Shown piece after piece: positions 45,921 through 63,998 of a DNA stretch of 64,000 bases. The notes under the pieces are model-generated. The model was not told where the DNA came from, did not search any database, and worked only from the letters and a program-made list of their open reading frames with translations. The DNA comes from a virus. The stretch is from positions 31,645 through 95,644 of IMG/VR virus record IMGVR_UViG_3300032235_000911; one strand, 5' to 3'. The translations under genes and the position numbers were made by a program. The stretch's first letter is position 1; each line of letters starts with the position of its first letter.

Positions 45921-45936
45921 AAAGGCCTCTATAAAA

Positions 45937-46013: not shown

Positions 46014-46016
46014 AGA

Positions 46017-46091: not shown

Positions 46092-46117
46092 GCTAAAACT
46101 AAACTTTTAAAGAACAT

Positions 46118-46193
46118 TGGAGCCTCCTACCCGACTTGAACGGGTCACATCCTGATTACAAAACAGGTGCTCTGCCAGATGAGCTAAGGAGGC
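46118..46193 (-). tRNA. tRNA-Thr(UGU)
   Basis: cloverleaf, loop TTTGTAA, CCA encoded. Confidence 0.92.
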
Positions 46194-48989: not shown

Positions 48990-49172
48990 TTAGGCAATAG
49001 GTATCCAGGCGTAAAATTTATCCTCACCCATCTTAGTAATGAATTGGGCAACAAAATTTTCTTCGCATTCCATAAAAAGACGGGCAATAACTTCGTGCTT
49101 TGCTGCTTCGCTACCCATTTTTAATACCTTGACAGTATAAAAAGCACTGCTTAGTTCCTTTGCTTCTATCAT
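48990..49172 (-). CDS. hypothetical protein
   Basis: 60 aa; GGAG RBS; ATGA overlap. Confidence 0.6.
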   Translation of the reverse strand: MIEAKELSSAFYTVKVLKMGSEAAKHEVIARLFMECEENFVAQFITKMGEDKFYAWIPIA

Positions 49173-49756
49173 TTTTTATCTCCATATGGATCAAACGGGT
49201 GGTTGAAATCAAAAGCAACAGCGTCAGCCTCACCGGCAAGATTTTCAAACGCAGCAATGGTACGCAGGACATCAACGAGTGCTGTGTGACTACGCCCAAG
49301 GCCCTCGATTTTATAATATTCGCAAAGGGCATCAAGTGAACTACGGTTTAGTTTGCCGTCTGACACAAGTTGATCGCCCATGTGCTTTGTATCAAAATAC
49401 TTTTTCCATTTTGGACGACCAAAATAAACATCGTCAAAACTTTTATTGATAAAACGGTAATCAAAAACAGCATTTTGTCCAACAATATAATCACAGTTTT
49501 CAAGCATGGGCAGCACAATGTGCGCTACTTGATCAAAAGTAGGCGCATGTTGCCACTCTAAATGGTCGTAGCCGTTGATTTTTAGGGCTACGGGCGAAGC
49601 CCGTTCGATGTATTTGGGTTTTATTTTGCTATTATACTGCTCAATGATAGTGCCTTTGTAGGGTTTAAAGTCTACGCGTACGCAAGCAATGTCAATAATC
49701 TCATGATCAAGCAGATCAAGACCAGTTGTTTCCGTATCAAAAAAAGTTAGTATCAA
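49169..49756 (-). CDS. DEDDh 3'-5' exonuclease (DNA polymerase III epsilon-like)
   Basis: FFDTETTG, QNAVFD, HTALVD; TTG start inferred from GGAG RBS and TTGA overlap. Confidence 0.88.
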   Translation of the reverse strand: MILTFFDTETTGLDLLDHEIIDIACVRVDFKPYKGTIIEQYNSKIKPKYIERASPVALKINGYDHLEWQHAPTFDQVAHIVLPMLENCDYIVGQNAVFDYRFINKSFDDVYFGRPKWKKYFDTKHMGDQLVSDGKLNRSSLDALCEYYKIEGLGRSHTALVDVLRTIAAFENLAGEADAVAFDFNHPFDPYGDKK

Positions 49757-50274
49757 AGTGTTGCTCCAAGCCAAAAACGCCATGACTCGGGCATCTTGGA
49801 ATCAAAGTTAAAAAAGTATTCTACGTCATGAATATACGGAAGTATAGCAGGTTTTACAACCGGCTTAAGTAGTTTCATGCCGCAAGTGGCAAGAGATTTG
49901 TCGCCTTTGCGTTGATTGCAGGCAACACAGCATGTAACAACATTGGTCCAACTTGTTTTGCCGCCACGAGTCTTTGGAAGAACGTGGTCAAGTGTAAAAA
50001 CATTGATAGAAACATGGTTGGCGCAGTATTGGCAACGGCCCTCGTCGCGAATCCAAACATTTTTACGGGAGAAGCGCACGCTTTTGACACGGTTGCGCCG
50101 GGAAGCGTTGAAAACAACAACAGAAGGGATGCGCATAGAGGTAGAAGGGCTGCGGATTTCTTCTGTATACTCAGAAAGAATTTTTACCTTGCCAGAATAG
50201 ACAAGCGTAACGGCTTTTTCCCAAGGGATAAGCCCAAGAGGTTCATAGGTGTGACTTAGTGTTAGTACTTTCAT
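49753..50274 (-). CDS. HNH endonuclease (McrA/HNH_5-like)
   Basis: RDEGRCQYC..TLDHVLPKTRGG..NVVTCCVACNQRK; TTGCCA-17-TATAGT promoter upstream. Confidence 0.9.
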   Translation of the reverse strand: MKVLTLSHTYEPLGLIPWEKAVTLVYSGKVKILSEYTEEIRSPSTSMRIPSVVVFNASRRNRVKSVRFSRKNVWIRDEGRCQYCANHVSINVFTLDHVLPKTRGGKTSWTNVVTCCVACNQRKGDKSLATCGMKLLKPVVKPAILPYIHDVEYFFNFDSKMPESWRFWLGATL

Positions 50275-51487: not shown

Positions 51488-51608
51488 AGTTATCCTCCAA
51501 GATAGGTAGTCTATACCATAAATAAGTACCGGTTGCAACCATTTTTTCGGCACATTTCCTACGTCGTCCCAAAACTGCCGAAATCTTATATCCCTTTGGC
51601 ACATAGAG

Positions 51609-51692
51609 AGAGAAAAAGTCCTAAATTTTCTTAGAGAATTTGTTCGACGATCCGACAAAAGAGAAAAAGTTTCAAAATTTCTTAGAGAATTT
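51609..51692. repeat. two imperfect 33-bp direct repeats at the arm divergence point
   Basis: AGAGAAAAAGTcctaaatTTTCTTAGAGAATTT (51609-51641) and AGAGAAAAAGTttcaaaaTTTCTTAGAGAATTT (51660-51692). Confidence 0.75.
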
Positions 51693-51830
51693 ATGCTTCG
51701 GCTATGCTTATAACGCCGTAAAAGACTTTCTCGCAGTAAGTGATTTAGCCCTTATCCCTCCACCCCTGCCTCCCCCTCCCCCCCTGCGTCAAATAAAAAA
51801 CAAAGTCAAGCTCAAAAAGGGGGAACAAAA

Positions 51831-51874
51831 AATAAAGGCCGTGCAAGGGACCGGCCCCTGCTGACCACCAAAAA
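51831..51874 (+). repeat. cassette-boundary palindrome copy 1 (right half only)
   Basis: core GGGACCGGCCCC 51847-51858, right arm CCACCAAAAA; TTGCAT 23 nt after the core. Confidence 0.8.
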
Positions 51875-51881
51875 TAAAACT

Positions 51882-51933
51882 TTGCATGGGGACGGGAAGT
51901 GTGGGATAAGACTCTCACGCCGCACGGTGCGGC
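51882..51933 (+). promoter_or_regulatory. sigma70-type promoter plus leader hairpin
   Basis: TTGCAT-17-GATAAG; GCCGC-ACGGT-GCGGC. Confidence 0.65.
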
Positions 51934-51946
51934 AAGGAGACAGGCG

Positions 51947-52183
51947 ATGAAGATTGATTCCCGCGAAGTGTATGGCGACGACGACGTGCGTGTTGACTGC
52001 GACTGCAACGCGGACAAGGCGTGCAACGAGTGCGTCGACGGTGGACTCTACGAAGGTGGGCAGTTGCCCCCGCCGCCTCCGTTCATCCTGCTTGACTCCC
52101 CCTTGACACCCGATGAGGCACGCGCTATGCACGCCCTCATGCACTGCGAAGACGAACAGCTCTGCACCTTCTGCAACCAGTAA
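51947..52183 (+). CDS. small Cys-rich acidic protein
   Basis: AAGGAG RBS; CDC..CNEC..HC..CTFC. Confidence 0.7.
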   Translation: MKIDSREVYGDDDVRVDCDCNADKACNECVDGGLYEGGQLPPPPPFILLDSPLTPDEARAMHALMHCEDEQLCTFCNQ

Positions 52184-52201
52184 CAGGAAAGGATAAAACA
52201 A

Positions 52202-52390
52202 ATGGCGAACGAACCGAAGTGCGGTGGCAGTCATACAAAGTACGACGGGTCATGGTGGGACAGGGATAGCCGTGGAATAGAAACGGCTCGCGTATGCGAT
52301 GAATGTATTGACGCTAAGCGAGCAAAGTATCGTCCAGGAATCTTTTGTAACCCAGACTACTGGACAGACGAGCAGGTTGACGGCGACTAA
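52202..52390 (+). CDS. small CxxC protein whose 3' half is duplicated beyond the HNH gene
   Basis: 62 aa; AAGGA RBS; DSRGIETARVCDEC..KYRP. Confidence 0.75.
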   Translation: MANEPKCGGSHTKYDGSWWDRDSRGIETARVCDECIDAKRAKYRPGIFCNPDYWTDEQVDGD

Positions 52391-53109
52391 CCAGAGTGTC
52401 TATTTCCTTTTTTAATATTATCTACAGCCGATAGCGGTTGAAGGTTATCCAACCCCCAGCAGAGGCGAAAGGCATCATCTGCTGGGGTTTCATATGCAAA
52501 CCAAGACTTTGGCTTTATATGGTCAACGTGCCAATATGTCCCATAGTTATCCCAAGTCATACCCTCCTTTAATAAAGGCTCAAGATGGGCAACCAGTTGT
52601 TCAAGACTATAGCCGACAAGTTCTTCCCAAGAGCGACCGCCTTTACTTTCCTTGAGAGATTTCCACAGCGCAGTCCCGATAGCATGATCTAGTTTGCTCT
52701 GAGGATTGTTCTTTCTTTTTTCCCTTGAATGTTTTTGTGCCTCTGCAAGCCGCCCAGACTCTTTGTATTTCTGGTTTGCCTTTGCTAACGCTCCACTCTC
52801 TTTATATTTTTTCAAGTATTCTTTTCGTTTTTCTTTGTATTCAGAGGTTTGCGCTCTAGCTTTCCTTTTTTCTTTATATCCCTCAGTTTGATAATATGTT
52901 TTACCATACTCCCTCTTTTGCTCTTTGTAATGTAGTGCCGCCTCTCTTATCTTTTTTTGTTCTTTATAGTGCAATGTCTGCCTTTGCGCTTTAAGCTTTT
53001 GTTTAATACATTCTTTGCATAATGTGCTCAGCCCGTCCGACTTATTCTGGTCTTTATAATATTCATTAGCGTTCTTGTCCGCCTTGCATTTATTGCATAT
53101 TTTGTTCAT
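52387..53109 (-). CDS. HNH homing endonuclease
   Basis: KICNKC..CKEC, MTWDNYG..WHVDHIKP..NLQPL..DNIKK; AT-rich, opposite strand to neighbours. Confidence 0.9.
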   Translation of the reverse strand: MNKICNKCKADKNANEYYKDQNKSDGLSTLCKECIKQKLKAQRQTLHYKEQKKIREAALHYKEQKREYGKTYYQTEGYKEKRKARAQTSEYKEKRKEYLKKYKESGALAKANQKYKESGRLAEAQKHSREKRKNNPQSKLDHAIGTALWKSLKESKGGRSWEELVGYSLEQLVAHLEPLLKEGMTWDNYGTYWHVDHIKPKSWFAYETPADDAFRLCWGLDNLQPLSAVDNIKKGNRHSG

Positions 53110-53185
53110 ATTGTTCCCTTTGCGGAATGCCGCGTGTATCGTTCATTATAACTAGTTTCTTTATTTGTTTAAACCATATTTATTT

Positions 53186-53320
53186 GACGCCCGTGGTATC
53201 CCGCTTGCCCGTGTGTGTATGGAATGCATCAACGTGAAGCTGGCAAAGTATCGGCCCGAAGTGTTGACCAACAGTAACTATGACTTGATGGATTGTCCCC
53301 TTGATGAGGATAGGTGGTAA
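53186..53320 (+). pseudogene. orphan 3' half paralogous to 52202-52390
   Basis: reads DARGIPLARVCMECINVKLAKYRPEVLTNSNY..*; no RBS or ATG; in-frame TAG at 53153. Confidence 0.75.
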
Positions 53321-53321
53321 C

Positions 53322-53594
53322 ATGAGCAATGATATCATTGATGTCCCATTCGTCAACCTAACCGAGAAGCGCATCAAGTGGGCAGGGTTGCGGGTTACTC
53401 TACCGTTCGTCGCGTTCCTGTTTGGGTTCCTTATCATCCCCGTCGCTGCGACCTGTATGGGGGAAGCGCCGCAACTCATGACTGATATCTATGACCGTGG
53501 GGCTTTTATCTGTGGGGTATTCAGCGTGCTGGGTCTTGCCTTTGCTCTTGGTACATATATATTCGCCCTGTGGTATAGCAGCCGCTACGAATAA
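53322..53594 (+). CDS. 2-TM membrane protein
   Basis: AGGTGG RBS; two hydrophobic helices. Confidence 0.75.
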   Translation: MSNDIIDVPFVNLTEKRIKWAGLRVTLPFVAFLFGFLIIPVAATCMGEAPQLMTDIYDRGAFICGVFSVLGLAFALGTYIFALWYSSRYE

Positions 53595-53612
53595 TGATAG
53601 CCCCGCCCTGCC

Positions 53613-53656
53613 AATATGGGGGGCAAAGGGGGCCGGCCCCTGCTGACCACTGAAAA
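53613..53656 (+). repeat. cassette-boundary palindrome copy 2
   Basis: core GGGGCCGGCCCC 53629-53640. Confidence 0.9.
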
Positions 53657-53662
53657 AAGAAG

Positions 53663-53716
53663 TTGCCCATCCTGCCCCACCCCTGTATAAAGACACCATC
53701 AGCGGCACGGAGCCGC
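53663..53716 (+). promoter_or_regulatory. sigma70-type promoter plus ANGGA leader hairpin
   Basis: TTGCCC-17-TATAAA; GCGGC-ACGGA-GCCGC. Confidence 0.75.
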
Positions 53717-53729
53717 AGGGAGAAGAAGG

Positions 53730-53816
53730 ATGCACAAGCCCAGCAAGTTGACCTTGACAGACATTCTCGGCTGCACTATGTTTATGGCGTTCTTCATCTC
53801 GCTGCTTTTCCTCTAG
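53730..53816 (+). CDS. 28-aa hydrophobic peptide
   Basis: MHKPSKLTLTDILGCTMFMAFFISLLFL; GGGAG RBS. Confidence 0.65.
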   Translation: MHKPSKLTLTDILGCTMFMAFFISLLFL

Positions 53817-53824
53817 GAGTCACC

Positions 53825-53896
53825 ATGCGCCGGTCCACGTTCCTCTCCATTCTTTATGTCACCCTCGTTGTCGGCGGTGCCTACCTTTTCACCTAA
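53825..53896 (+). CDS. 23-aa hydrophobic peptide
   Basis: MRRSTFLSILYVTLVVGGAYLFT; AGGAG RBS. Confidence 0.65.
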   Translation: MRRSTFLSILYVTLVVGGAYLFT

Positions 53897-53914
53897 TACC
53901 CGAAAGGAACTCCC

Positions 53915-53989
53915 ATGTTTCCCTACGCAATGGCAGCAGTTTGGGTCGTTACCGCAATCTTCAGCCTTTCACAGAATGGAGCAGAGTAA
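53915..53989 (+). CDS. 24-aa hydrophobic peptide
   Basis: MFPYAMAAVWVVTAIFSLSQNGAE; AAGGA RBS. Confidence 0.6.
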   Translation: MFPYAMAAVWVVTAIFSLSQNGAE

Positions 53990-54102
53990 TGATTCGCTCA
54001 ATCAAGCGATTCTTTGGCATCCCGCCTAATGTGTACGACCTTCCCTATCAGCAGCGCGTCTATATTGTCGCGCTTTCAACCGCAGTTCAGCGCATTAAAT
54101 AG
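53989..54102 (+). CDS. 37-aa peptide
   Basis: MIRSIKRFFGIPPNVYDLPYQQRVYIVALSTAVQRIK; GGAG RBS; TAATG coupling. Confidence 0.6.
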   Translation: MIRSIKRFFGIPPNVYDLPYQQRVYIVALSTAVQRIK

Positions 54103-54206
54103 GTTCTTTATATTTATTGCCTTTTATTATATTTTCTTTTGCCTCTGCCGCCTAATACTGGCATAACCACCCTGCCTCAATCACGAGGCTACGAAAGGGT
54201 CCGCTA

Positions 54207-54431
54207 ATGGGTAAAAAGAAGCAGGAGATTGCCCCTGTTCATCAACGAATCTTGAATCTTTACAAGGCTTTTACCCTTGTCAATGGTTATCAGCCCTCAT
54301 ATGTTCAAGTTGGGCAAGTTCTGAACATCAGCGGCGCGGCTGTTGGCAACCATATTCGGCAGATGGAACGGGCTGGTCTCGTTCGTCGTCCGCCGGAGAA
54401 GTGGGGCCGAGGTCTGACCCTCCTTCGTTAG
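54207..54431 (+). CDS. stand-alone LexA-like winged-helix DNA-binding domain
   Basis: QRIL..NGYQPSYVQVG..LNISGAAVGNHIRQMERAGLVRR..RGL; TTGCCT-17-CATAAC promoter upstream. Confidence 0.75.
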   Translation: MGKKKQEIAPVHQRILNLYKAFTLVNGYQPSYVQVGQVLNISGAAVGNHIRQMERAGLVRRPPEKWGRGLTLLR

Positions 54432-54450
54432 AGTAAGTCCCCGCCCAGCC

Positions 54451-54494
54451 TTTTTGGTGGGCAAACGGGGCCGGCCCTGCTCAACCACCAAAAA
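54451..54494 (+). repeat. cassette-boundary palindrome copy 3
   Basis: TTTTTGGTGG-N6-GGGGCCGGCCCT-N6-CCACCAAAAA (perfect 10-bp outer arms). Confidence 0.9.
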
Positions 54495-54500
54495 TAAAAG

Positions 54501-54557
54501 TTGCACGCTGCCCGTCAATCGGGGTATAAAGTCTTTCATACGGTGGATGGACCGCCG
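54501..54557 (+). promoter_or_regulatory. sigma70-type promoter plus ANGGA leader hairpin
   Basis: TTGCAC-18-TATAAA; CGGTGG-ATGGA-CCGCCG. Confidence 0.75.
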
Positions 54558-54569
54558 AGGAGACTGCCG

Positions 54570-54773
54570 ATGAGCGACAAGAAGTTGATTCCTAACCATT
54601 CAATGATTGACTATCGGCGTGGCGAGTATGCCGATGCTGTCACGCGTCTCCTCACAAATCTCGAATACGATAACAATCGTAAGAACCTTCCTCCCTACCT
54701 TCTCGAGATTGTAGATGATGCACTCGCAAAGCGTAAAGCGTGGATGAACGAGCCGCTCTATCGTGAGGGGTAA
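54570..54773 (+). CDS. hypothetical protein
   Basis: GAGGAG RBS; MSDKKLIPNH... Confidence 0.75.
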   Translation: MSDKKLIPNHSMIDYRRGEYADAVTRLLTNLEYDNNRKNLPPYLLEIVDDALAKRKAWMNEPLYREG

Positions 54774-54780
54774 ATAAAAG

Positions 54781-54830
54781 TTGCACGCTGGCAGGAAGTG
54801 TGAGATAACGCCTCTGCCCGATGGACGGGC
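54781..54830 (+). promoter_or_regulatory. sigma70-type promoter plus ANGGA leader hairpin
   Basis: TTGCAC-17-GATAAC; GCCCG-ATGGA-CGGGC. Confidence 0.7.
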
Positions 54831-54844
54831 AACGGAGACAGACG

Positions 54845-55099
54845 ATGGAAACGCCCAGCCGCCCCAATGCTCACATTCTTGACCTTTCAAACACGCTTGC
54901 CAACTGCCGTCCCATTGTTTCGCGTGATTGGCGGATTGTCAACGGTAAGGTCCACCTCATTACGGTTGTTCGCGATGGTCGCCCAGGCGTAGGAGCCTAT
55001 GAGGCAATCATCGTGAATGAAACGCAGTCCTGCCAGACTTGGGGAAAGAACGCTCGCACCCTGCTCGCCGCTGCCAAGCGTCGCGCTGGCACCCTGTAA
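54845..55099 (+). CDS. hypothetical protein
   Basis: GGAG RBS; METPSRPNAH... Confidence 0.75.
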   Translation: METPSRPNAHILDLSNTLANCRPIVSRDWRIVNGKVHLITVVRDGRPGVGAYEAIIVNETQSCQTWGKNARTLLAAAKRRAGTL

Positions 55100-55106
55100 A
55101 ATGTGC

Positions 55107-55161
55107 TTGCATCCCGTTAAGCAGTCTGCTAAATAGTCTCAACATGCTGCATGGAGCAGCA
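55107..55161 (+). promoter_or_regulatory. sigma70-type promoter plus ANGGA leader hairpin
   Basis: TTGCAT-17(TGn)-TAAATA; TGCTGC-ATGGA-GCAGCA. Confidence 0.65.
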
Positions 55162-55172
55162 GGAGAACGTCA

Positions 55173-55481
55173 ATGACCGTCGAGAGCAACAAGTTTTTTG
55201 CCCCTGTCAACTGCGCGATTATCAAGGATGGGGACGGTACAAAGCGTCACGCTGAGTTCGTCTATGCAAAGGACATTCCGACTGAGTTCCTGCCCGATGG
55301 TCTGAACAGTCTTGAACTGGAGAACAAGCGGCACCCGTGGAATGTGAATGGTCTGGCGTGGGATATGAGCGTCAATGCTTGGCGCAATATGAAGAACGCC
55401 GAGAATGTCAAGTCCTCGCTTGAACTGTTCACCTATTACAACCTGCCTGACAAGATGTATTCCTGCTGGCGGGAGGGGTAA
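55173..55481 (+). CDS. hypothetical protein
   Basis: 102 aa; AGGAG RBS. Confidence 0.75.
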   Translation: MTVESNKFFAPVNCAIIKDGDGTKRHAEFVYAKDIPTEFLPDGLNSLELENKRHPWNVNGLAWDMSVNAWRNMKNAENVKSSLELFTYYNLPDKMYSCWREG

Positions 55482-55484
55482 CAT

Positions 55485-55694
55485 ATGAGCAAACTGACGG
55501 CAAGGCAGAACGAAACCCTCCAAGTTATCAAAGCACATATCAAAAAGAATGGTTATCCTCCGACCATTCGTGAGATTGGTGCGGCGATGGGTATTGTTTC
55601 GCCCAATGGGGTTGCTGAACACTTGGACCACTTGGAAGGCAAGGGCTACATATCCCGCAATCATAGAATATCACGAGCAATCGTCGTACTATGA
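55485..55694 (+). CDS. stand-alone LexA N-terminal DNA-binding domain
   Basis: LTARQ..GYPPTIREIGAAMGIVSPNGVAEHLDHLEGKGYISR..SRAI; no peptidase S24 domain. Confidence 0.9.
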   Translation: MSKLTARQNETLQVIKAHIKKNGYPPTIREIGAAMGIVSPNGVAEHLDHLEGKGYISRNHRISRAIVVL

Positions 55695-55712
55695 TTGAAA
55701 CCCCGCCCCGCC

Positions 55713-55756
55713 TTTTTGGGGGGCAAAGGGGGCCGGCCCCTGCCAGCCACTGAATA
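55713..55756 (+). repeat. cassette-boundary palindrome copy 4
   Basis: core GGGGCCGGCCCC 55729-55740. Confidence 0.9.
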
Positions 55757-55762
55757 TTTTAT

Positions 55763-55815
55763 TTGTCACCGGCACGGACTCCCGCTATAACGGTTTCACG
55801 GTCGATGAACGACCG
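55763..55815 (+). promoter_or_regulatory. sigma70-type promoter plus leader hairpin
   Basis: TTGTCA-17-TATAAC; CGGTCG-ATGAA-CGACCG. Confidence 0.75.
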
Positions 55816-55828
55816 ATGGAGACAGAAG

Positions 55829-56146
55829 ATGCCGAAGTTGACCAGCAACCGCGCCGCCGCTGCACTCACCCACGGTCGCAAGTTCAGCAGCAAGAACACG
55901 AAGGTCGATTCATCCGGCCTTTACCTCTTCGGCAATCATATTGCCCGCGACGCTGGTGAGGGCCATGTTGCAATCACCAACCGTGGGCATTTCACCCTTA
56001 CCACGAAGGACCGGCTGAACGCCATTCCTAATGTTTCAATCTATCAGAAGAACTATCAATGGTTCTTGAATGATAAGGCGTGGGACGGTGAGTGGGTTAT
56101 TGTTGCGCCCGATGGTACGTGGGCACCCGAAGTCAAGATTTGGTAA
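55829..56146 (+). CDS. hypothetical phage early protein
   Basis: GGAG RBS; LFGNHIA..TLTTKDRLN..QKNYQW. Confidence 0.8.
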   Translation: MPKLTSNRAAAALTHGRKFSSKNTKVDSSGLYLFGNHIARDAGEGHVAITNRGHFTLTTKDRLNAIPNVSIYQKNYQWFLNDKAWDGEWVIVAPDGTWAPEVKIW

Positions 56147-56170
56147 TAGAGTAAACCCCGCCCCCACCGA

Positions 56171-56214
56171 TATTTGGTGGGCAAGCGGGGCCGGCCCCTT
56201 CTGACCCCTACTTT
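56171..56214. repeat. cassette-boundary palindrome copy 5 (convergent junction, no promoter)
   Basis: core GGGGCCGGCCCC 56187-56198, hairpins on both sides. Confidence 0.9.
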
Positions 56215-56231
56215 TGGGGTCGGGCTACATT

Positions 56232-56300
56232 CTATCGCCAGTTTAGAATGATACCGGCACCGGCAACAAATGCAGCAAAGAATGACATAACAAGTGGCAT
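56232..56300 (-). CDS. 22-aa hydrophobic peptide
   Basis: MPLVMSFFAAFVAGAGIILNWR; AGGAG RBS. Confidence 0.6.
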   Translation of the reverse strand: MPLVMSFFAAFVAGAGIILNWR

Positions 56301-56308
56301 CAAATCTC

Positions 56309-56389
56309 CTATCGACAGAGGAATCGTACAACCCCCACCGTCGTCACAAGCACAGTGGGGAGGAACGCACCAACAAGGAAATAAATCAT
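56309..56389 (-). CDS. 26-aa hydrophobic peptide
   Basis: MIYFLVGAFLPTVLVTTVGVVRFLCR; GGAG RBS. Confidence 0.55.
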   Translation of the reverse strand: MIYFLVGAFLPTVLVTTVGVVRFLCR

Positions 56390-56472
56390 TAGTGCAGGAC
56401 TCCACCGTTATTGCGGTATTCTTCAAGGCTGATGATATCTGCTTCCGTTGCCGGTCGGGGAGGCGGTTCGGA

Positions 56473-56703
56473 CTACAAGCCAGCAGCAAGAAGCGTTTCA
56501 TGAACGAACTGGGTAAGAATACCCGTCAGCGTTGCAACATCATTCATACAGGCAGCGGCAAACCCGTCCTTCTGGACCTGCTCAATGTCGCCAGCGTTAA
56601 CAGCGGTGTAATCGTCCACAACCTCTGCAACCCGCTCCGAGAACTGGGTAAGGTGGCCAAGCAGCGTCATCTGGACTTCTTCCTTTGTCAACTTGTCACT
56701 CAT
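56473..56703 (-). CDS. hypothetical helical protein
   Basis: GGAG RBS; MSDKLTKEEVQ... Confidence 0.7.
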   Translation of the reverse strand: MSDKLTKEEVQMTLLGHLTQFSERVAEVVDDYTAVNAGDIEQVQKDGFAAACMNDVATLTGILTQFVHETLLAAGL

Positions 56704-56704
56704 G

Positions 56705-56788
56705 TTACTCTCCGATGCTGGCAAGTGCCAGCGTTGAAATGAACCCTACCACAAGGAAGGTGAGACTGTCAAACACGAACTGCACCAC
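56705..56788 (-). CDS. 27-aa hydrophobic peptide
   Basis: GTG start; MVQFVFDSLTFLVVGFISTLALASIGE; AGGAGG RBS; TTGGCA-17-TAAGTT promoter upstream. Confidence 0.6.
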   Translation of the reverse strand: MVQFVFDSLTFLVVGFISTLALASIGE

Positions 56789-56845
56789 CTCTTGCCTCCT
56801 GAGTGAGCGTAACTTACAGCATCCCCATGCCCCTGCCAACTGTTT

Positions 56846-56889
56846 TTTTTGGTGGTTGACGGGGGCCGGCCCCTCTGCCCCCCTACTTC
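56846..56889 (-). repeat. cassette-boundary palindrome copy 6
   Basis: core 56862-56873; TTGGCA 22 nt from the core on the minus strand. Confidence 0.9.
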
Positions 56890-56911
56890 TGGGCGGGCGT
56901 CGGGACTAGGT

Positions 56912-57589
56912 CTATCCGAAGAACTTTTCCTGCGCCGTCGTCAGATTCCGGCCACCGTGATACACCAGCCCGATTGCGATATCGCCTTCAATGGCGGGGA
57001 TATCATTCACATTGCCGTCAATGTAGAACGCCGCCTGTCGGGCCTCATCATTCGAGAATATGCGCGAATGGGGCTTGCCAAGGTTCACAAGGTTGTCGTA
57101 CTTACCGCCCAATGACTGCGTGATTCGCAGGTTCGCAGGGGCAACCGATAGGTCAAGGTGGAGACTCTTAGTGTATGCGTAGAAGATAACATCGGGGTAT
57201 GCACGGGCAACCTTGCACCATGCGTCAAGGTAGCTCTGGGAATAGAAGTCACCGGCATCATGCAACCGGACGACATTGTACGGCTTACGCTTGCGGGGTG
57301 TCTTGACAACCAGCGCGGCAAGGTCCGCGATGATAAGGTCCGCGAAGTCCGACCGCTGCGAAAGCGTCAGGTTGTGGTGACGCGCCGCGACAACATTCTT
57401 GAAACGATAGGTTCCCTGCTTTGCATAGCAGACACCGCGACAAGCCAGCGCGGCGGGGCAAGTGTTCATCTTCTCGCCGTTCATGGTAAAGTCTACATCG
57501 GCAGGAAGCCCGAAGCCGACGACGCGATACTCGCCGCCCGAAGTCTTCAACAGCTTTGCGTTGCCTTCCGTCCAAACCGCGTTCGCCAT
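56912..57589 (-). CDS. Gp88-like protein (radical-SAM-like Cys motif)
   Basis: GNAKL, TCPAALACRGVCYA, RLHDAGDF, YAYTKS. Confidence 0.8.
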   Translation of the reverse strand: MANAVWTEGNAKLLKTSGGEYRVVGFGLPADVDFTMNGEKMNTCPAALACRGVCYAKQGTYRFKNVVAARHHNLTLSQRSDFADLIIADLAALVVKTPRKRKPYNVVRLHDAGDFYSQSYLDAWCKVARAYPDVIFYAYTKSLHLDLSVAPANLRITQSLGGKYDNLVNLGKPHSRIFSNDEARQAAFYIDGNVNDIPAIEGDIAIGLVYHGGRNLTTAQEKFFG

Positions 57590-57602
57590 CGTCGTTCTCC
57601 AT

Positions 57603-57655
57603 CGGTGTCCGTCACCGTGAAAAGACTTATCTCACAAGTCGGGGTGGGGTGGCAA
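57603..57655 (-). promoter_or_regulatory. sigma70-type promoter plus ANGGA leader hairpin
   Basis: TTGCCA-18-GATAAG; CGGTG-ACGGA-CACCG. Confidence 0.7.
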
Positions 57656-57661
57656 ACTTTT

Positions 57662-57705
57662 TTTTTGGGGGTTGATAGGGGCCGGCCCCGCTTGCCCACT
57701 TTTTT
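57662..57705 (-). repeat. cassette-boundary palindrome copy 7
   Basis: core 57678-57689. Confidence 0.9.
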
Positions 57706-57735
57706 TCGTGAGCAGGGGGCCGTTCTATTTATAGA

Positions 57736-58158
57736 CTAATCAAACTGCCGCTCATATTCCTCAATTGCAGCATCCTTTATGCTCTCCCATTCCTCTGCTG
57801 TGAACATTGAGGTATTGATAACAGCAGCGGGCTGGAGGCTATCATCAAGGAGGTGAATTTGAATGATATCAACATCGTGGCCTGGACCGTCAATGTAATC
57901 GTTGACAGCGGCATAGACACGAAAGAGGTCAGCATCACGTTCCCAATCAACAACAACATTGTGACTATCGGAAACATGGGGAAGAACGGCAGCAGGCATT
58001 TTTTTTCCTCGTGCAGCATACTTGTTTGTATGCTTGCGGTTATCGCGAAAGGTACCAGCCTTTGTAACGCCATTGATAATGACAACCATAAAAGGGTCAC
58101 GGCTCTTGACGGAGCGAGGGTTGACCTTTATGGACTTCACGTTACGCACGGCTGGCAC
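57736..58158 (-). CDS. hypothetical protein (basic N-half, acidic C-half)
   Basis: 140 aa ORF; internal GAGGA-ATG may be a second start. Confidence 0.65.
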   Translation of the reverse strand: MPAVRNVKSIKVNPRSVKSRDPFMVVIINGVTKAGTFRDNRKHTNKYAARGKKMPAAVLPHVSDSHNVVVDWERDADLFRVYAAVNDYIDGPGHDVDIIQIHLLDDSLQPAAVINTSMFTAEEWESIKDAAIEEYERQFD

Positions 58159-58177
58159 CTTTCACATTTAGATGATA

Positions 58178-58405
58178 CTACGGAACAACAATCTTGGCAA
58201 TACGGAAACGGTTATTCTTGTTTGTATTGCGGAACTCGCGGCTGATGTCTCGGGCGACCTTGCGGGTACGCAGGACCAGCGGACCCTTTTCGTCCACAAT
58301 GGTCTGCCAAGTCGGGGAGGCACTACCCCCCTGCCCCTTCTCCTTCCGGCTAACCTGCACGGCCCACATCGTATTGTGCTTCGTCGTCTTGAACTTGTAC
58401 GGCAT
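58178..58405 (-). CDS. small basic hypothetical protein
   Basis: AGGAGG RBS. Confidence 0.7.
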   Translation of the reverse strand: MPYKFKTTKHNTMWAVQVSRKEKGQGGSASPTWQTIVDEKGPLVLRTRKVARDISREFRNTNKNNRFRIAKIVVP

Positions 58406-58425
58406 CTCTCTATCCTCCTGCCCCT

Positions 58426-58680
58426 CTATCGGGTGGGCGTCCGATTGTGAACGTGTGTGAACTCACCCACGGTCCAACCGTGGGCTTCAAGTGTCTCTTT
58501 GTATGCCACAGCAACGCTCTGCGCGTCAAGGGCAATCATTTCGTCCGTCCAACTATCTTCATTGTCTGGCAACTTGCTGGGGCGTGTCACCATTTCAAGG
58601 TCAAGTGCATAGCACACTTCACCAAATGAACTAACGCCAGCCGTTCTCTTGGAACTCAGAATCTCCCTCGTCGTCGGCAT
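58426..58680 (-). CDS. hypothetical protein
   Basis: GAGGA RBS; MPTTREILSS... Confidence 0.6.
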   Translation of the reverse strand: MPTTREILSSKRTAGVSSFGEVCYALDLEMVTRPSKLPDNEDSWTDEMIALDAQSVAVAYKETLEAHGWTVGEFTHVHNRTPTR

Positions 58681-58903
58681 CTTCGTTTTCCTCTGCGTCC
58701 TCAAGACGCTCTGCGGCTGCACGGGCAAGGTTCCTCATACCATACTGCTCGTTTGGAGTCCAGTCCTCAATGTCGGCATCGCTGCCGTCCTCTGCTTCGA
58801 TGCGCTCAATCTTTACTACACCGTTGGAATAGCGGGTGGCATGGACCGTAAACTCTCCGTCCTTGTCACGATAGGGAAAACTTACGGTTGTCGCAATACT
58901 CAT
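58631..58903 (-). CDS. acidic hypothetical protein
   Basis: GAGGA RBS; MSIATTVSFPY... Confidence 0.7.
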   Translation of the reverse strand: MSIATTVSFPYRDKDGEFTVHATRYSNGVVKIERIEAEDGSDADIEDWTPNEQYGMRNLARAAAERLEDAEENEDADDEGDSEFQENGWR

Positions 58904-58905
58904 TT

Positions 58906-59142
58906 TTATTCTTCCTCGGCCAGCATGGCCCACAGACTGTTCTTTGTAGCAGGTTCACGAACCTCTGTCAACTGCTTTCGGAGTGACAGAACCCGATGCT
59001 CCATGACTATATTGAGCGATTGCCAATGCACTTCGACCATATCAAAACCTTCCTCCTCGTACTGGCAAACAATAACTCCCTTCCCATGCTCGGGATGGAT
59101 GATGATGGTCCCGCTGCGGAGGCTTGGCTCGCTGTTCGTCAT
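58906..59142 (-). CDS. small SH3-like protein, probably leaderless
   Basis: GTIIIHPEHGKGVIV..VEVHW; ATG 7 nt after the -10 box. Confidence 0.7.
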   Translation of the reverse strand: MTNSEPSLRSGTIIIHPEHGKGVIVCQYEEEGFDMVEVHWQSLNIVMEHRVLSLRKQLTEVREPATKNSLWAMLAEEE

Positions 59143-59185
59143 GAGTGGCTTTATCTCACAGGCAACCCCCCGCTGTCACCAAGTT

Positions 59186-59229
59186 TTTTTAGTGGGCGGT
59201 GGGGGCCGGCCCCGCTTGCCCCCTGTTTT
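59186..59229 (-). repeat. cassette-boundary palindrome copy 8
   Basis: core 59202-59213; GTGACA 22 nt away (minus), TTGACA 24 nt away (plus). Confidence 0.9.
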
Positions 59230-59278
59230 CTGCAGGCTTGACAAGGTGGCGCGGTGCGTTATGTTTTAGGGATAGAAC

Positions 59279-59298
59279 GCCCCCCCTTTCGGGGGGGC
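59279..59298. terminator. GC-rich hairpin downstream of 59316-59660
   Basis: GCCCCCCC-TTTC-GGGGGGGC (GAAA tetraloop on the minus strand). Confidence 0.55.
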
Positions 59299-59315
59299 TG
59301 ACGCTTGCCCTACGA

Positions 59316-59660
59316 TTAGGGGTTAGCGGAAATCTGCTCCTCGCTCTCGGCCTCCTCCAGCGCAGCCAGTTTAGCCTGAAGCGCGGCAAACTGGTCGGCA
59401 ACATCGTTTTCGACCTCCGGCACCGGCTCCTCCGTAGAGGATTCACTCTCCGGCGAGAGTACGCTAACCGTATCGGTTGGGAAGTACCCACCATTACGTC
59501 CACGGCGGCAGTTGACGGAACCATCGGAGGTCAGCTCCTTGAGGACGGACAGGGCATCCTCACCGTGGGTGCTGATGATTGCACTCTTGGGGCAAGGACG
59601 CTTGTTCTCCTGCTGATACTCGGCAACGAACTGGAGAAGGTCAGACTTGGAAACGGCCAT
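59316..59660 (-). CDS. winged-helix protein with an acidic/coiled-coil tail
   Basis: LKELTSDGSVNCRRGRNGGY wing (Rrf2-like); TTGCAG-17-TAGAGT promoter upstream. Confidence 0.7.
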   Translation of the reverse strand: MAVSKSDLLQFVAEYQQENKRPCPKSAIISTHGEDALSVLKELTSDGSVNCRRGRNGGYFPTDTVSVLSPESESSTEEPVPEVENDVADQFAALQAKLAALEEAESEEQISANP

Positions 59661-59742
59661 CGGGAACCTCTACGCTGGACTGTGCCAGCTTGTTGGGGGC
59701 TGTATTGCCCTCTCAACTTGACGGACTCTAGCAGACTTACGG

Positions 59743-59886
59743 TTAGGCTGCAAGTGGAAAAAGGAAATCTTCACCGCACTCTGGACATAAGCAGACCTCT
59801 TTGGTAAAGAACATATCGTTCTCGTCGAACACCTCTGTTTCGCCAATCTCTACCGCTTCGCAGTGGTCGCAATCAACGGCTTCCAT
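59743..59886 (-). CDS. 47-aa zinc-ribbon protein (not in ORF track)
   Basis: MEAVDCDHC..CLCPECGEDFLFPLAA; GGAGG RBS; TAGACA-17-TATTAT promoter upstream. Confidence 0.7.
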   Translation of the reverse strand: MEAVDCDHCEAVEIGETEVFDENDMFFTKEVCLCPECGEDFLFPLAA

Positions 59887-59948
59887 CCCTACCTCCCTCC
59901 TGCTGATGGTTGAATAATACCCCCACTCCCTCCTGCTGTCTACCCCTA

Positions 59949-59992
59949 TTTTTGGTGGGCAGGGGGGGCCGGTCCCTCTCTACCCCTATATC
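59949..59992. repeat. cassette-boundary palindrome copy 9 (divergent junction, promoter on both sides)
   Basis: core GGGGCCGGTCCC 59965-59976; TAGACA 22 nt away (minus) and TTGACC 23 nt away (plus). Confidence 0.88.
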
Positions 59993-60035
59993 TTTTCTCT
60001 TGACCCTGCCCCCCGTTCTGCCCTACTATCTCTCC

Positions 60036-60245
60036 ATGAGCCAACGAGTCCTGCCGGAAGTCGGTGAGTTATGGGTCTATTGCGACGAAGGTGAGCGGCC
60101 ATTTCTGTTTTTGCAACGGTTGCCAACACCCTCATGGGGCGACCATGAGGTTGGCGCACTCTATCGCGCACTAGATATAAAGTATGGTAGTATTAGAGAA
60201 ATAGAAGTAGGACAGTATCTCCAAAACTATCACAAGGTAGGATAA
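60036..60245 (+). CDS. EVGELW-family SH3-like paralog 1, probably leaderless
   Basis: LPEVGELW..FLFL; ATG 6 nt after TACTAT. Confidence 0.75.
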   Translation: MSQRVLPEVGELWVYCDEGERPFLFLQRLPTPSWGDHEVGALYRALDIKYGSIREIEVGQYLQNYHKVG

Positions 60246-60246
60246 C

Positions 60247-60483
60247 ATGGCAGACTTGACTGACAAGCAGAAGCAGGAAATGTGGAAGAAGTGTCCTTTC
60301 AAGTTGGGCGATACGGTACTTGGCAACGATGATAAGCCTTGGATTATTATGGATATTGTGGAGTGGCATAGTTTTTCTACTTGGACAATGAAAATCTATG
60401 ACCATCAAACTACAGAGCAGCGTGATGAACTGCTTGACATCTACAGTAACCAAGTGCTAGATGAGAACTTTTACGAGGGATAA
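60247..60483 (+). CDS. small SH3/KOW-like protein
   Basis: PFKLGDTVL..WIIMDI. Confidence 0.7.
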   Translation: MADLTDKQKQEMWKKCPFKLGDTVLGNDDKPWIIMDIVEWHSFSTWTMKIYDHQTTEQRDELLDIYSNQVLDENFYEG

Positions 60484-60484
60484 G

Positions 60485-60667
60485 ATGCCGCTGGAACCCG
60501 AAGCTGGCGAGTTATGGAAGTGGTTTGGAGGCCAGCATTTTCTACTGCTGCAAAAGAAATCCCAGTACGGTGACAAGTTTGTGGTATTAGAACTTGCAAC
60601 GGGTAGCATAAAGGATATGTACTTTCACAAAAGCGAGATAGGTAGTTCATGGATAAAGGTTGCATAA
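60485..60667 (+). CDS. EVGELW-family paralog 2
   Basis: PEAGELWKW..FLLL..WIKVA. Confidence 0.75.
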   Translation: MPLEPEAGELWKWFGGQHFLLLQKKSQYGDKFVVLELATGSIKDMYFHKSEIGSSWIKVA

Positions 60668-60669
60668 AC

Positions 60670-60843
60670 ATGGAGGTTGGCGAGGTATGGAGATGGGTGG
60701 ATGAGAACCCCCTCCTTCTCCTGCTAAGGGAAGAAGAAATGGACGGCGGTATATTTTTTCTCTGTCTTGACTTGACGACAGAGGAGAAGTTCAGTATGGT
60801 TTTCCATCCAGCACTCATGGACCGCTGGACGAGGTTAGCATGA
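60670..60843 (+). CDS. EVGELW-family paralog 3
   Basis: EVGEVWRW..LLLL..WTRLA. Confidence 0.7.
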   Translation: MEVGEVWRWVDENPLLLLLREEEMDGGIFFLCLDLTTEEKFSMVFHPALMDRWTRLA

Positions 60844-61172
60844 CCTGTGTAGAGTGTGGTGACGAGTACGGATGGGACAAGAACCGTGCCAAGTTGGGCG
60901 GCAAGCGTACCCACTGTGGCGACTGTGCCGACGAAACCAGCGTCCGTTATGTTGGCGTTTCGGCTGGCGAAGGTAAGATGAGTGCCGTTCAAGTGTTGAA
61001 GTTTGATAATCCTGCTGACCGTGAGGCGTATGTTGAGGCTTGGAAGGTCAATAGCGGACTCTACAAAGGCAAGAGTTGCCAGATTGGTCGTGGACTTACT
61101 AGCACCCCATCTGTCAAGTTCCAGACCGTTACAACCAACAACCCCAATGCTAACCATAAAGGTAAAGCATGA
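60840..61172 (+). CDS. zinc-finger hypothetical protein
   Basis: CVECG..HCGDCA. Confidence 0.75.
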   Translation: MTCVECGDEYGWDKNRAKLGGKRTHCGDCADETSVRYVGVSAGEGKMSAVQVLKFDNPADREAYVEAWKVNSGLYKGKSCQIGRGLTSTPSVKFQTVTTNNPNANHKGKA

Positions 61173-61378
61173 ATATCCCAGACCGCTTACCAGAAGTGGG
61201 CGAAATATGGGGATGGGGAAACTCTAAAAAATATGTCAAGTTTCTTGTGCTTGGCATAGAACATGATAGTAACAAAGACCTATTGCCATACACAATGAGA
61301 GGAATAGTATTGGACTCAAAAGAAACAGTTGTATCTGATAGATACAGTTTTCATTCATACTGGTCGAGGATAGCGTGA
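61169..61378 (+). CDS. EVGELW-family paralog 4
   Basis: LPEVGEIW..FLVLGI..WSRIA. Confidence 0.75.
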   Translation: MNIPDRLPEVGEIWGWGNSKKYVKFLVLGIEHDSNKDLLPYTMRGIVLDSKETVVSDRYSFHSYWSRIA

Positions 61379-61590
61379 CAATCATTCCCGAAATCGGTGA
61401 ACTGTGGGAGTACCGCAACGGGGGGCAACACCTTTGCGTGCTTGTGCTTGGCGTGAGTGCCGCCATAAAAACGGATGGAGTAGAGATTCGGTGCATAAAC
61501 ATAATAAATAGCGGCTTTTCAAGGGACAGCGAATATTGGTGTTTCTCAACGGAGGAACACCAGCGTTCAAACTGGAAGAAGGTGGCGTGA
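61375..61590 (+). CDS. EVGELW-family paralog 5
   Basis: PEIGELW..VLVLGV..WKKVA. Confidence 0.75.
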   Translation: MTIIPEIGELWEYRNGGQHLCVLVLGVSAAIKTDGVEIRCINIINSGFSRDSEYWCFSTEEHQRSNWKKVA

Positions 61591-61820
61591 TGGCGAAGCG
61601 TAAAGCAGCAGAGATTGGCGAGTTGTGGATTCGCAGCATTGGCGGCGAACAGGAAGGCTTACTCATACTGGGGATTGAGAAGAATCACCGTGAGATTGGA
61701 TTGGATTATTATTCTTACACGGTACTTGAGCCAATGACAGGGCAGACCTTCACCTTTGATAAAATCTTTCCTATCCGTGAAAGTTACACGGCTGGTACGC
61801 GATGGAAACGGGCAGATTAG
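61590..61820 (+). CDS. EVGELW-family paralog 6
   Basis: AEIGELW..LLILGI..WKRAD. Confidence 0.75.
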   Translation: MAKRKAAEIGELWIRSIGGEQEGLLILGIEKNHREIGLDYYSYTVLEPMTGQTFTFDKIFPIRESYTAGTRWKRAD

Positions 61821-61858
61821 GTGGTTTGGCGGGGCCGGCCCCCCTTGACCCCTATTTT
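61815..61858 (+). repeat. cassette-boundary palindrome copy 10
   Basis: core 61831-61842; TTGACC-18-CATAAG starts 23 nt after the core. Confidence 0.9.
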
Positions 61859-61916
61859 TTCCTGCTTGACCCCTGCTCCCCGTTTATGGCATAAGACTGG
61901 ACATCGGAGGTGACGC

Positions 61917-62132
61917 ATGAGTGTTGAGGCTACGCTTGCACAGATGGCTGGCGAGGATAGCGCGGAAACAAAGGGATGGGACGATGGCATGGATTTTGCC
62001 AATACTCTCAAGATGGGAGTTCTTGAAGAACTGCGTGAGTTGCGCCGTCTGAACTACCCAGACGCCTACATCGACGCATGGAAAGCCTCTGCAAGTAGTA
62101 TTTTTTACACCTTGACTGACGAGAGCAAGTAG
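61917..62132 (+). CDS. hypothetical acidic protein
   Basis: GGAGG RBS. Confidence 0.75.
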   Translation: MSVEATLAQMAGEDSAETKGWDDGMDFANTLKMGVLEELRELRRLNYPDAYIDAWKASASSIFYTLTDESK

Positions 62133-62169
62133 GATAAAGTTGCATTTCACCCTGCAACGGAGGTAAGTC

Positions 62170-62958
62170 ATGGCTCGCAAGAAGGCAGCGATTCAACCGT
62201 TTGATTTTTCGGATTTCTCCTGCGATACGGATAAGTTGACGCTGGACAAGTATAAAACCGATGCCGACATTCTTGCACGGTTGGAGTTTATCGACAAGAA
62301 CAAGGAACATGGTGAATATTACCTGAAGCGAAACATTCAGTTTATGAAGAACGGTGAGACCTTCCAGTCATTCAACAAGTGGACAAAGCGTAATATTCTG
62401 CAAGTCCTTTGGAGGTATGAGGACACGCTTCAGCAGCAGGAAACCGTCCGTTTCCGTGAGTGGTACGATAAGCGTGAGGACGCGCAGCAGGCATGGCGCG
62501 AGTGCTGGTCCTCCATGTACGGGCTGCACAGTTGGCAGGGTTATTTCAACAATGGCACCTATTCCGCACAGGAAACACGGGACGAATGGGCCAAGTTGGA
62601 AACCGCTGGTCCCTCTGACCCCTGTATGTGGGATGAATTTCTCTGTAACTACGCTGTAAAAAGTTATGTGGAACTGCACCGCAATCCTAAGTATGAGATT
62701 GGCGACCTTGTGCTGCTCCGTAAGGCATACATTGGAAGCTGGCGTTATGACCCCGATACGGAACTTGATATTGCGATTCCCCGTCTTGGCACCATCATGG
62801 GTTACAAGGACGAAACAGGCGGCAAGCGCAAGAGTTCGTCAAGTGCTGGTAGCCGCACCGTCTCAGTCCTGTGGCTTGGAAAGAATGATATCATTGATGT
62901 AATGGAGAAGACTATCAAGTTGGAATGTCGCAAGGGTCACAAGATGGGCAAGGTCTAA
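62170..62958 (+). CDS. hypothetical protein with a C-terminal SH3/KOW-like domain
   Basis: 262 aa; GGAGG RBS; PKYEIGDLV..LGTIM..VSVLW. Confidence 0.8.
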   Translation: MARKKAAIQPFDFSDFSCDTDKLTLDKYKTDADILARLEFIDKNKEHGEYYLKRNIQFMKNGETFQSFNKWTKRNILQVLWRYEDTLQQQETVRFREWYDKREDAQQAWRECWSSMYGLHSWQGYFNNGTYSAQETRDEWAKLETAGPSDPCMWDEFLCNYAVKSYVELHRNPKYEIGDLVLLRKAYIGSWRYDPDTELDIAIPRLGTIMGYKDETGGKRKSSSSAGSRTVSVLWLGKNDIIDVMEKTIKLECRKGHKMGKV

Positions 62959-62979
62959 CCCCTACTCCCTCTCCTGCTG

Positions 62980-63023
62980 GAAACGGTGGGCAGAGGGGGC
63001 CGGCCCCCACCGCACCCTATTTT
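62980..63023 (+). repeat. cassette-boundary palindrome copy 11
   Basis: core 62996-63007 (14-bp palindrome 62995-63008); TTGACC-17-TATGTT starts 23 nt after the core. Confidence 0.9.
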
Positions 63024-63081
63024 TTTATCCTTGACCCCCTGAACGGGCTGTTGTATGTTTCTTTTCAAGAAGGAGGCAGAC

Positions 63082-63876: not shown

Positions 63877-63998
63877 TTGACAAGGCTGGCAAGACAAGGT
63901 AAGATGGGTTCACAAGTTGGGGATGCACTTAGGCCCCCTCTGCTCATTGAAAAAAGAATAAAAAAGAAGTTGAAAGAAGTAGAGAGTTGTGGTATAGT
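63877..63998 (+). promoter_or_regulatory. two tandem sigma70-type promoters
   Basis: TTGACA-17-TAAGAT (63877-63905) and TTGAAA-17-TATAGT (63970-63998). Confidence 0.7.

Follow-up and report, generated by a model that had tools for sequence, protein, structure and literature searches.

The right arm of an uncultured phage of ~193 kb is GC-rich, carries small genes, and is punctuated by 11 copies of a short palindrome, and the question is what kind of element this palindrome is. The phage is represented by the 95,644-bp IMG/VR record IMGVR_UViG_3300032235_000911 (CheckV completeness 49%). The last 64 kb of the record (positions 31,645 to 95,644) was analyzed; this stretch of 64,000 nucleotides (nt) is referred to as the window, and positions are counted from its first letter. 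The palindromes lie between positions 51,831 and 63,023. An earlier note, made from the letters alone, had described them as delimiting promoter-gene cassettes and had proposed a protein-binding site, a recombination joint, or both. It had matched the element to no known type. This last point was not borne out, as the promoter-early stem-loop (PeSL) cassettes of T4-type phages are a described counterpart. The array is a stricter variant of these cassettes, not a new class of element, and the palindromes are probably the upstream module of PeSL-like composite regulatory cassettes.

The 12-bp palindrome was searched for with at most one mismatch. Eleven copies were found, compared with 0.01 expected from 100 shuffles, and their starts were exactly those given in the earlier note. 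Eight copies are perfect, and copies 1, 3, and 9 carry one transition each. The note had seen no core in the first 51.8 kb of the window, and none was detected elsewhere in the whole 95,644-bp record, even with two mismatches. The whole-record scan that it had called for, carried out with an nhmmer profile of the 34-mer (core, spacers, and arms), returned the same 11 copies only. Chance and low complexity as sources of the cores were ruled out by the shuffles and the profile scan. The core is restricted to the GC-rich small-gene arm and always lies between transcription units; its intergenic position, claimed for all copies, was upheld on the gene map. A core is present in 11 of the 17 intergenic gaps of at least 40 nt in the arm. 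As had been described, conserved outer arms contrast with variable 6-nt spacers, and the outer inverted repeat of copy 3 is perfect over 10 bp. The four central bases of the core, which would form the loop in RNA, are invariant in all 11 copies, and the spacers within the putative stem are variable and weakly complementary. Copy 1 had been read as the promoter half only; indeed, its left arm is degenerate and the upstream hairpin is absent.

Promoters were evaluated by scoring the best -35/-10 pair for each flank of each core (22 flanks). On 12 of the 22 flanks, a sigma70-like promoter (8-10 of 12 consensus matches) was found whose -35 box begins at a distance of 22-24 nt from the edge of the core. 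Over the same 13 kb, such matches occur at a per-position background of 0.9%, and the binomial P for this offset is accordingly ~5e-14. At least one such promoter is present at 10 of the 11 copies, the number stated in the earlier note, but the offset of 22-23 nt stated there proved too narrow. Copies 1-4 and 8-11 have a plus-strand promoter on the right, and copies 6-9 have a minus-strand promoter on the left. Copies 8 and 9 have a promoter on each side, contrary to the single promoter side per unit that had been assumed, and copy 5 has none. The promoter sides agree with the coding direction: the segments after copies 1-4 and 9-11 read rightward and segments 5-8 read leftward.

Two promoter classes were distinguished. 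Class A (units 1+, 2+, 3+, 4+, 6-, 7-, 8-, and 9-) has the arm CCACC, an A-tract in seven of eight units (the tract of unit 4 is AT-rich and mixed), a TTGnCA-type -35 box, and an offset of 22-23 nt. Class B (units 8+, 9+, 10+, and 11+) has the arm CCCCT, a T-tract, a TTGACC-type -35 box, and an offset of 23-24 nt. The AT-rich tract between the arm and the -35 box is 11-13 nt long in the two classes. The core centre, computed from the promoter hexamers, is at -63.5 to -65.5.

Oriented alignment bore out the unit architecture of palindrome, promoter, leader, small genes, and hairpin. Each unit spans ~75-150 bp and runs from an operon-end hairpin through the palindrome, the A/T tract, and the promoter to a leader hairpin and a ribosome-binding site. 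Conservation extends to the distal half: its arm is GGTGG, its spacer is of the GCAA type, and a C-rich block lies farther upstream, just past the stop codon. The predicted distal hairpin forms between this C-block and a strand made up of arm, spacer, and the first core G-run, and its upstream strands vary among units in step with the spacers. The GC hairpin reported on the other side of the core is therefore present but is not separate from the repeat, since left arm, spacer, and first G-run together supply its 3' strand. The distal hairpin was predicted at -16 to -25 kcal/mol at 9 of the 10 units with incoming transcription, and was not predicted at the purely divergent halves 1+ and 9-. An arm-core-arm hairpin (predicted at -10 to -22 kcal/mol) rivals the distal hairpin for the same G-block. 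Downstream, GGAG-type Shine-Dalgarno sites lie 5-12 nt ahead of the first start codon of the units, and in many units a short leader hairpin with a GGA-containing loop lies between the -10 box and the Shine-Dalgarno site. Class A leaders with a GC hairpin and a GGA loop before the GGAG-type site were seen at 51910-51946, 53692-53730, 54531-54569, 54810-54844, 55792-55828, and 57590-57625.

PeSL cassettes are known from RB49/phi1 and later from PST/T4 and nt-1/KVP40; they consist of a G-run/C-run stem-loop, an AT-rich tract, a sigma70-like promoter, and a Shine-Dalgarno site, and are found in hyperplastic ORFan regions (PMC2839356, PMC4122927). For PeSLs, a role in insulating the cassettes and in shuffling them was proposed. 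The stem-loops end transcription in reporter assays, and recombination between PeSLs accounts for indels between sister phages and gives mini-circles (PMC2839356, PMC4122927). The authors speculated that the G/C motif is a protein target and also described 'half' PeSLs (PMC2839356, PMC4122927). The stem-loop, the AT-rich tract, the sigma70-like promoter, the Shine-Dalgarno site with start codon, and the clustering of small ORFans are all found in the present array, together with two half units (54772-54810 and 63932-63998). The array differs from PeSLs in several respects. In RB49/phi1, the position of the stem-loop relative to the promoter is variable, mostly inside the promoter, and its sequence is not invariant (PMC2839356, PMC4122927), whereas the core described here is an invariant 12-bp palindrome, including the would-be loop, with conserved outer arms, and its position is always upstream, with a constant distance of 22-24 nt in both promoter classes despite their unlike tracts. 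It is also kept at divergent (1 and 9) and convergent (5) junctions, a second hairpin overlaps it, and its carrier is only a distant member of the T4 superfamily.

Other known elements resemble the array in part. Repetitive extragenic palindromes (REPs) and bacterial interspersed mosaic elements (BIMEs), compared by description and not by sequence, are GC-rich imperfect palindromes at operon ends within transcribed intergenic DNA, thought to stabilize upstream mRNA and to bind proteins; they differ in being host-chromosome repeats with neither an attached promoter nor an invariant core. Integron attC and shufflon sfx sites share perfect or imperfect inverted repeats that delimit cassettes and are possible crossover points, but they depend on a tyrosine recombinase encoded nearby, and integron cassettes have no promoter of their own; the present cassettes have promoters throughout, and no recombinase was found in the 95.6-kb record. 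Class I activator sites and operators (CRP at -61.5; Rrf2/IscR-type operators) are likewise dyad sites at a fixed position above the UP-element region. They differ from the present site in that its centre is at about -63.5 to -65.5 and not at -61.5, copy 5 is promoterless, some promoters are siteless, and the cognate protein is only a candidate. A literature search on the core sequence found nothing related.

According to the favoured explanation, the GC-rich arm would hold early genes that depend on host RNA polymerase, arranged as ~11 short transcription units. The order within a unit is an upstream stop codon, the operon-end hairpin, the 12-bp palindrome, the right arm, an 11-13-nt A/T tract resembling an UP element, the sigma70-type promoter, and a leader hairpin with a Shine-Dalgarno site. 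The units would insulate and drive each cassette in the manner of PeSLs. As repeats, they could also serve as the substrate for recombination that reorders the cassettes, with one inversion between cores 5 and 9 as a presumed event.

This inversion is suggested by the junctions. The core occupies tandem (2-4, 6-8, 10, and 11), divergent (1 and 9), and convergent (5) junctions. In copy 5, both halves are of the distal (hairpin) type; in copy 9, both are of the proximal (promoter) type. Because an inversion through the palindrome would produce exactly these halves, an inversion between tandem units, with crossovers inside cores 5 and 9, is indicated, but the evidence is suggestive only, since functional design could give the same halves. 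When the inversion is undone, all 11 units are co-directional, with eight class A units before three class B units.

The arm also encodes three small winged-helix proteins, which are candidate readers of the core. The 69-aa protein covers the whole Pfam LexA domain (E 6.5e-26) and matches the DNA-binding domain of E. coli LexA (E 1.3e-10). The close similarity between its recognition helix and the E. coli LexA helix suggests that the protein targets host SOS boxes and not the palindrome. No E. coli-type SOS box was found in the window. Neither the 69-aa protein (55485-55694) nor the second LexA-type protein (54207-54431) has a cleavable C-terminal domain, and the 69-aa protein may be an uncleavable LexA mimic by which the SOS regulon of the infected host is kept shut. 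For the 114-aa protein, 57 homologues with 38-89% identity were found; its basic wing is invariant, and its C-terminal amphipathic helix is conserved. Its winged-helix domain was predicted with a local distance difference test score (pLDDT) of ~90. The fold matches are weak (best E 0.03) and include the Rrf2 family (CymR, IscR, RsrR, and NsrR), MarR, and LexA. The gene is faced by the near-consensus plus-strand promoter of unit 8 (59238-59265). Some metagenomic homologues of this protein are labelled IscR or transcriptional regulator by the Joint Genome Institute.

Several points weigh against the explanation of the array as PeSL-like cassettes. At least three arm promoters (~54781, 63877, and 63970) have no nearby palindrome; therefore, the core is not obligatory for promoter function. 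The class A units (1-4 and 6-9, promoter strand) have A-runs and no U-run after either hairpin. The intrinsic-terminator pattern of an arm-core-arm hairpin (-16 to -18 kcal/mol) followed by a U-run was found at units 10 and 11 only; T-runs on the plus strand are also present at units 5-9. A U-run after the hairpin is confined to class B units. Because most units have none, a clear intrinsic terminator of the classical kind is seen at units 10 and 11 alone, and a simple terminator scan did not flag the units. For single hairpins in DNA this rich in GC, the shuffle z-scores reach only modest values (-0.8 to -4.4). Moreover, the array is stricter than a typical PeSL set, given the variable position and sequence of the RB49/phi1 stem-loops, and the convergent and divergent pattern could be functional design and not history. 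A rival explanation is a purely RNA-level element, as in the classical view of PeSLs. The arm-core-arm structure would then be a terminator, attenuator, or stabilizer hairpin with no protein reader, and its invariance would be due to gene conversion or to a recent amplification. In favour of it, reporter assays show termination at published PeSL stem-loops (PMC2839356, PMC4122927), the hairpins of units 10 and 11 precede a U-run, and the substitutions in copies 3 and 9 preserve G-U pairing on the plus strand. Nevertheless, we consider this explanation unlikely. The would-be loop is invariant in 11 of 11 copies while the in-stem spacers pair weakly. Except at unit 10, all units with incoming transcription (9 of 10) are predicted to have an upstream hairpin no less stable than the arm-core-arm hairpin; this upstream hairpin would form first and use the 5' half of the core. 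The class A hairpin is followed by an A-run instead of a U-run, and junctions 1 and 9 keep the core although transcripts are not expected to cross it there. Because the loop is invariant, the spacers are free, the competing hairpin sequesters the 5' half of the core, and the core persists where it is untranscribed, the core may be read as double-stranded DNA by a dimeric protein and not act merely as an RNA stem; within the favoured explanation, we see an even chance of this.

A stronger role for a protein was also weighed. A single site could be at once the operator of a phage dimeric winged-helix regulator, an insulator, and a recombination joint, with the 114-aa Rrf2-like protein as the best candidate. 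Binding at about -64 would switch all early promoters together and block read-through between cassettes, and the self-inverted palindrome would be the crossover point for cassette inversion or reshuffling. This combination appears unlikely. Quite improbable is a site that acts as an operator only, from which one regulator (the 114-aa protein, a LexA-domain protein, or a host factor) would activate or shut all early promoters from about -64 with no role in termination or recombination. It is consistent with the tripartite conservation (arms and core fixed, spacers free), with a core-to--35 distance that is constant within 2 nt over two promoter classes with different tracts, and with the presence of three winged-helix proteins in the arm, one of them Rrf2-like with a long C-terminal helix and 57 conserved homologues. 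However, copy 5 is a full site without a promoter, the promoters at ~54781, 63877, and 63970 have no site, the best fold match has an E of 0.03, and the LexA-like recognition helix points to an SOS-box target. The integron- or shufflon-like system of the earlier note, in which the palindrome would be the site of a dedicated recombinase, is highly improbable, even though the palindromic core lies exactly at cassette boundaries and the presumed inversion has both ends within cores. Each cassette is self-promoted, unlike integron cassettes, and a single rearrangement was deduced. The recombinase search that the note had called for gave no tyrosine or serine recombinase (Phage_integrase, PF00589; Resolvase, PF00239) in the 95.6-kb record, which is ~49% of the genome; the same searches matched 14 of 14 and 12 of 14 control genomes.

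So far, PeSLs have been loosely similar units in a few cultured T4-type phages, with the protein reading of the G/C motif left open. The present array, from a distant and uncultured relative, is exceptionally clean, with an invariant palindrome, fixed spacing, and every boundary type. It adjoins genes for candidate DNA-binding proteins and shows an apparent inversion through the cores. Two questions thus become approachable, namely the control of the cassettes by a protein and the use of the units as breakpoints of early-gene shuffling. The coordinates of the features are listed in Table 1.

Table 1. Palindrome units, promoters, half units, and selected genes of the right arm (window positions)
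Feature	Position	Strand	Remarks
Unit 1	51836-51869	.	core 51847-51858, one mismatch; left arm degenerate; divergent junction with late-gene block
Unit 2	53618-53651	.	core 53629-53640; tandem plus-strand junction
Unit 3	54456-54489	.	core 54467-54478, one mismatch; perfect 10-bp outer inverted repeat
Unit 4	55718-55751	.	core 55729-55740; tandem plus-strand junction
Unit 5	56176-56209	.	core 56187-56198; convergent, hairpin-type halves on both sides, no promoter; putative inversion breakpoint
Unit 6	56851-56884	.	core 56862-56873; minus-strand tandem junction
Unit 7	57667-57700	.	core 57678-57689; minus-strand tandem junction
Unit 8	59191-59224	.	core 59202-59213; promoters on both sides
Unit 9	59954-59987	.	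core 59965-59976, one mismatch; divergent, promoter-type halves on both sides; putative inversion breakpoint
Unit 10	61820-61853	.	core 61831-61842; arm-core-arm hairpin, T-run (terminator-like), then promoter
Unit 11	62985-63018	.	core 62996-63007; T-run, then promoter
Promoter, unit 1	51881-51910	+	class A
Promoter, unit 2	53663-53691	+	class A
Promoter, unit 3	54501-54530	+	class A
Promoter, unit 4	55763-55791	+	class A; 10 of 12 consensus matches
Promoter, unit 6	56811-56839	-	class A
Promoter, unit 7	57626-57655	-	class A; drives GP88-family gene 56912-57589
Promoter, unit 8, minus	59150-59179	-	class A
Promoter, unit 8, plus	59238-59265	+	class B; consensus -35; antisense into 114-aa winged-helix gene
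Promoter, unit 9, minus	59914-59942	-	class A; 10 of 12 consensus matches
Promoter, unit 9, plus	60000-60029	+	class B
Promoter, unit 10	61866-61895	+	class B; -35 at offset 23
Promoter, unit 11	63031-63059	+	class B
Promoter-only half unit	54772-54810	+	exact 19-nt copy of unit 3 A-tract and -35; -10 at 17 nt; no palindrome
Degenerate half unit, record end	63932-63998	+	half core, arm-like stretch, A-tract, promoter 63970-63998
114-aa winged-helix protein, long C-terminal helix	59316-59660	-	57 homologues; candidate palindrome reader, by inference
69-aa stand-alone LexA N-terminal DNA-binding domain	55485-55694	+	Pfam match
74-aa winged-helix protein	54207-54431	+	weaker LexA_DNA_bind/MarR-like match
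HNH/endonuclease-VII-like gene, AT-rich	52387-53109	-	opposite strand within cassette 1

The array begins at a sharp change of composition and gene content. In the first 83 kb of the record, G+C ranges from 33 to 44%, and from copy 1 onward it ranges from 48 to 55%; in the window, the step lies at 51600-52000, where G+C rises from ~42% to ~50-55% and stays high until the record end. An assembly chimera behind this jump was ruled out, because an independent 192,879-bp assembly has exact copies of both structural and arm proteins (PhoH and the terminase together with arm proteins). All genes to the left of 51.6 kb are on the minus strand, and they make up a typical large-myovirus set with a baseplate wedge protein, a tail lysozyme, a head protease, PhoH, glycosyltransferases, a methyltransferase, a primase, a weak late-sigma match, four tRNAs, and a gp17-type large terminase. 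The terminase shares 44% identity with that of Flavobacterium phage immuto, 42% with that of Microcystis phage Mel-JY01, and ~34% with gp17 of T4-like cyanophages (31-44% over known phages). Since the terminase is of the gp17 type, the phage is placed in the wider T4 superfamily, of which it is, judged by this sequence, a distant uncultured member. To the right of 51.8 kb lie ~35 small open reading frames (ORFs) of 23-262 aa, the majority without a family match. The recognizable products are a Kyano_Gp96-family protein, a GP88-family protein, an HNH endonuclease, two LexA-domain proteins, and the 114-aa winged-helix protein; apart from the last, these are regarded as host-directed.

Relatives of the locus were searched for by motif, by protein, and in the genomes of known phages. 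Homologues of the 262-aa protein share 97-63% identity, and 90%-identical clusters are present on dozens of related contigs (0.5-28 kb) and in genomes of 151 and 195 kb. Protein identity to relatives is 86-99% for segments 6, 9, 10, and 11 and ~58-61% for the 114-aa protein; these values were not used as evidence. The contrast hints at mosaicism, but fast evolution of the acidic linker of the 114-aa protein could explain it equally well. A protein-guided search for related loci in IMG/VR and GTDB genomes found none. The motif scan of IMG/VR gave 27 single chance matches in GC-rich contigs and no arrays. In metagenomes, the motif scan gave 120 loci, which were GC-rich chance matches or poly-G/telomere-repeat artefacts at contig ends; none was related by blastn or tblastx. 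Eighteen loci (in the range L034 to L147) lie on low-GC contigs (18-32%), where GGGGATT-type telomere repeats run into poly-G/poly-C around the same 12-mer; they probably arose as artefacts of sequencing or assembly at the ends of eukaryotic chromosomes and are unrelated to the phage. Neither the core nor a repeated GC-rich palindrome was found in Microcystis phage Mel-JY01 or Flavobacterium phage immuto, the nearest cultured relatives, and the sole recurrent 12-mer in Mel-JY01 falls within a coding repeat.

A few further features were observed in the window. In the Rfam search, the four tRNAs were the only matches in the window, and none lay in the arm. These tRNAs form a minus-strand cluster at 45675-46193 (Ser-ACT, Pro-TGG, Gly-TCC, and Thr-TGT) that adjoins an HNH gene at 45137-45673. 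Another HNH gene, at 49753-50274, abuts the gene for a DNA polymerase exonuclease subunit (49169-49783). The HNH/endonuclease-VII-like gene of cassette 1 looks like a recent mobile insertion, because its 90% cluster contains this phage alone. At the start of cassette 2 (53731-54102), four tiny ORFs of 23-37 codons each have their own ribosome-binding site; three are visibly hydrophobic, and these ORFs may encode membrane peptides.

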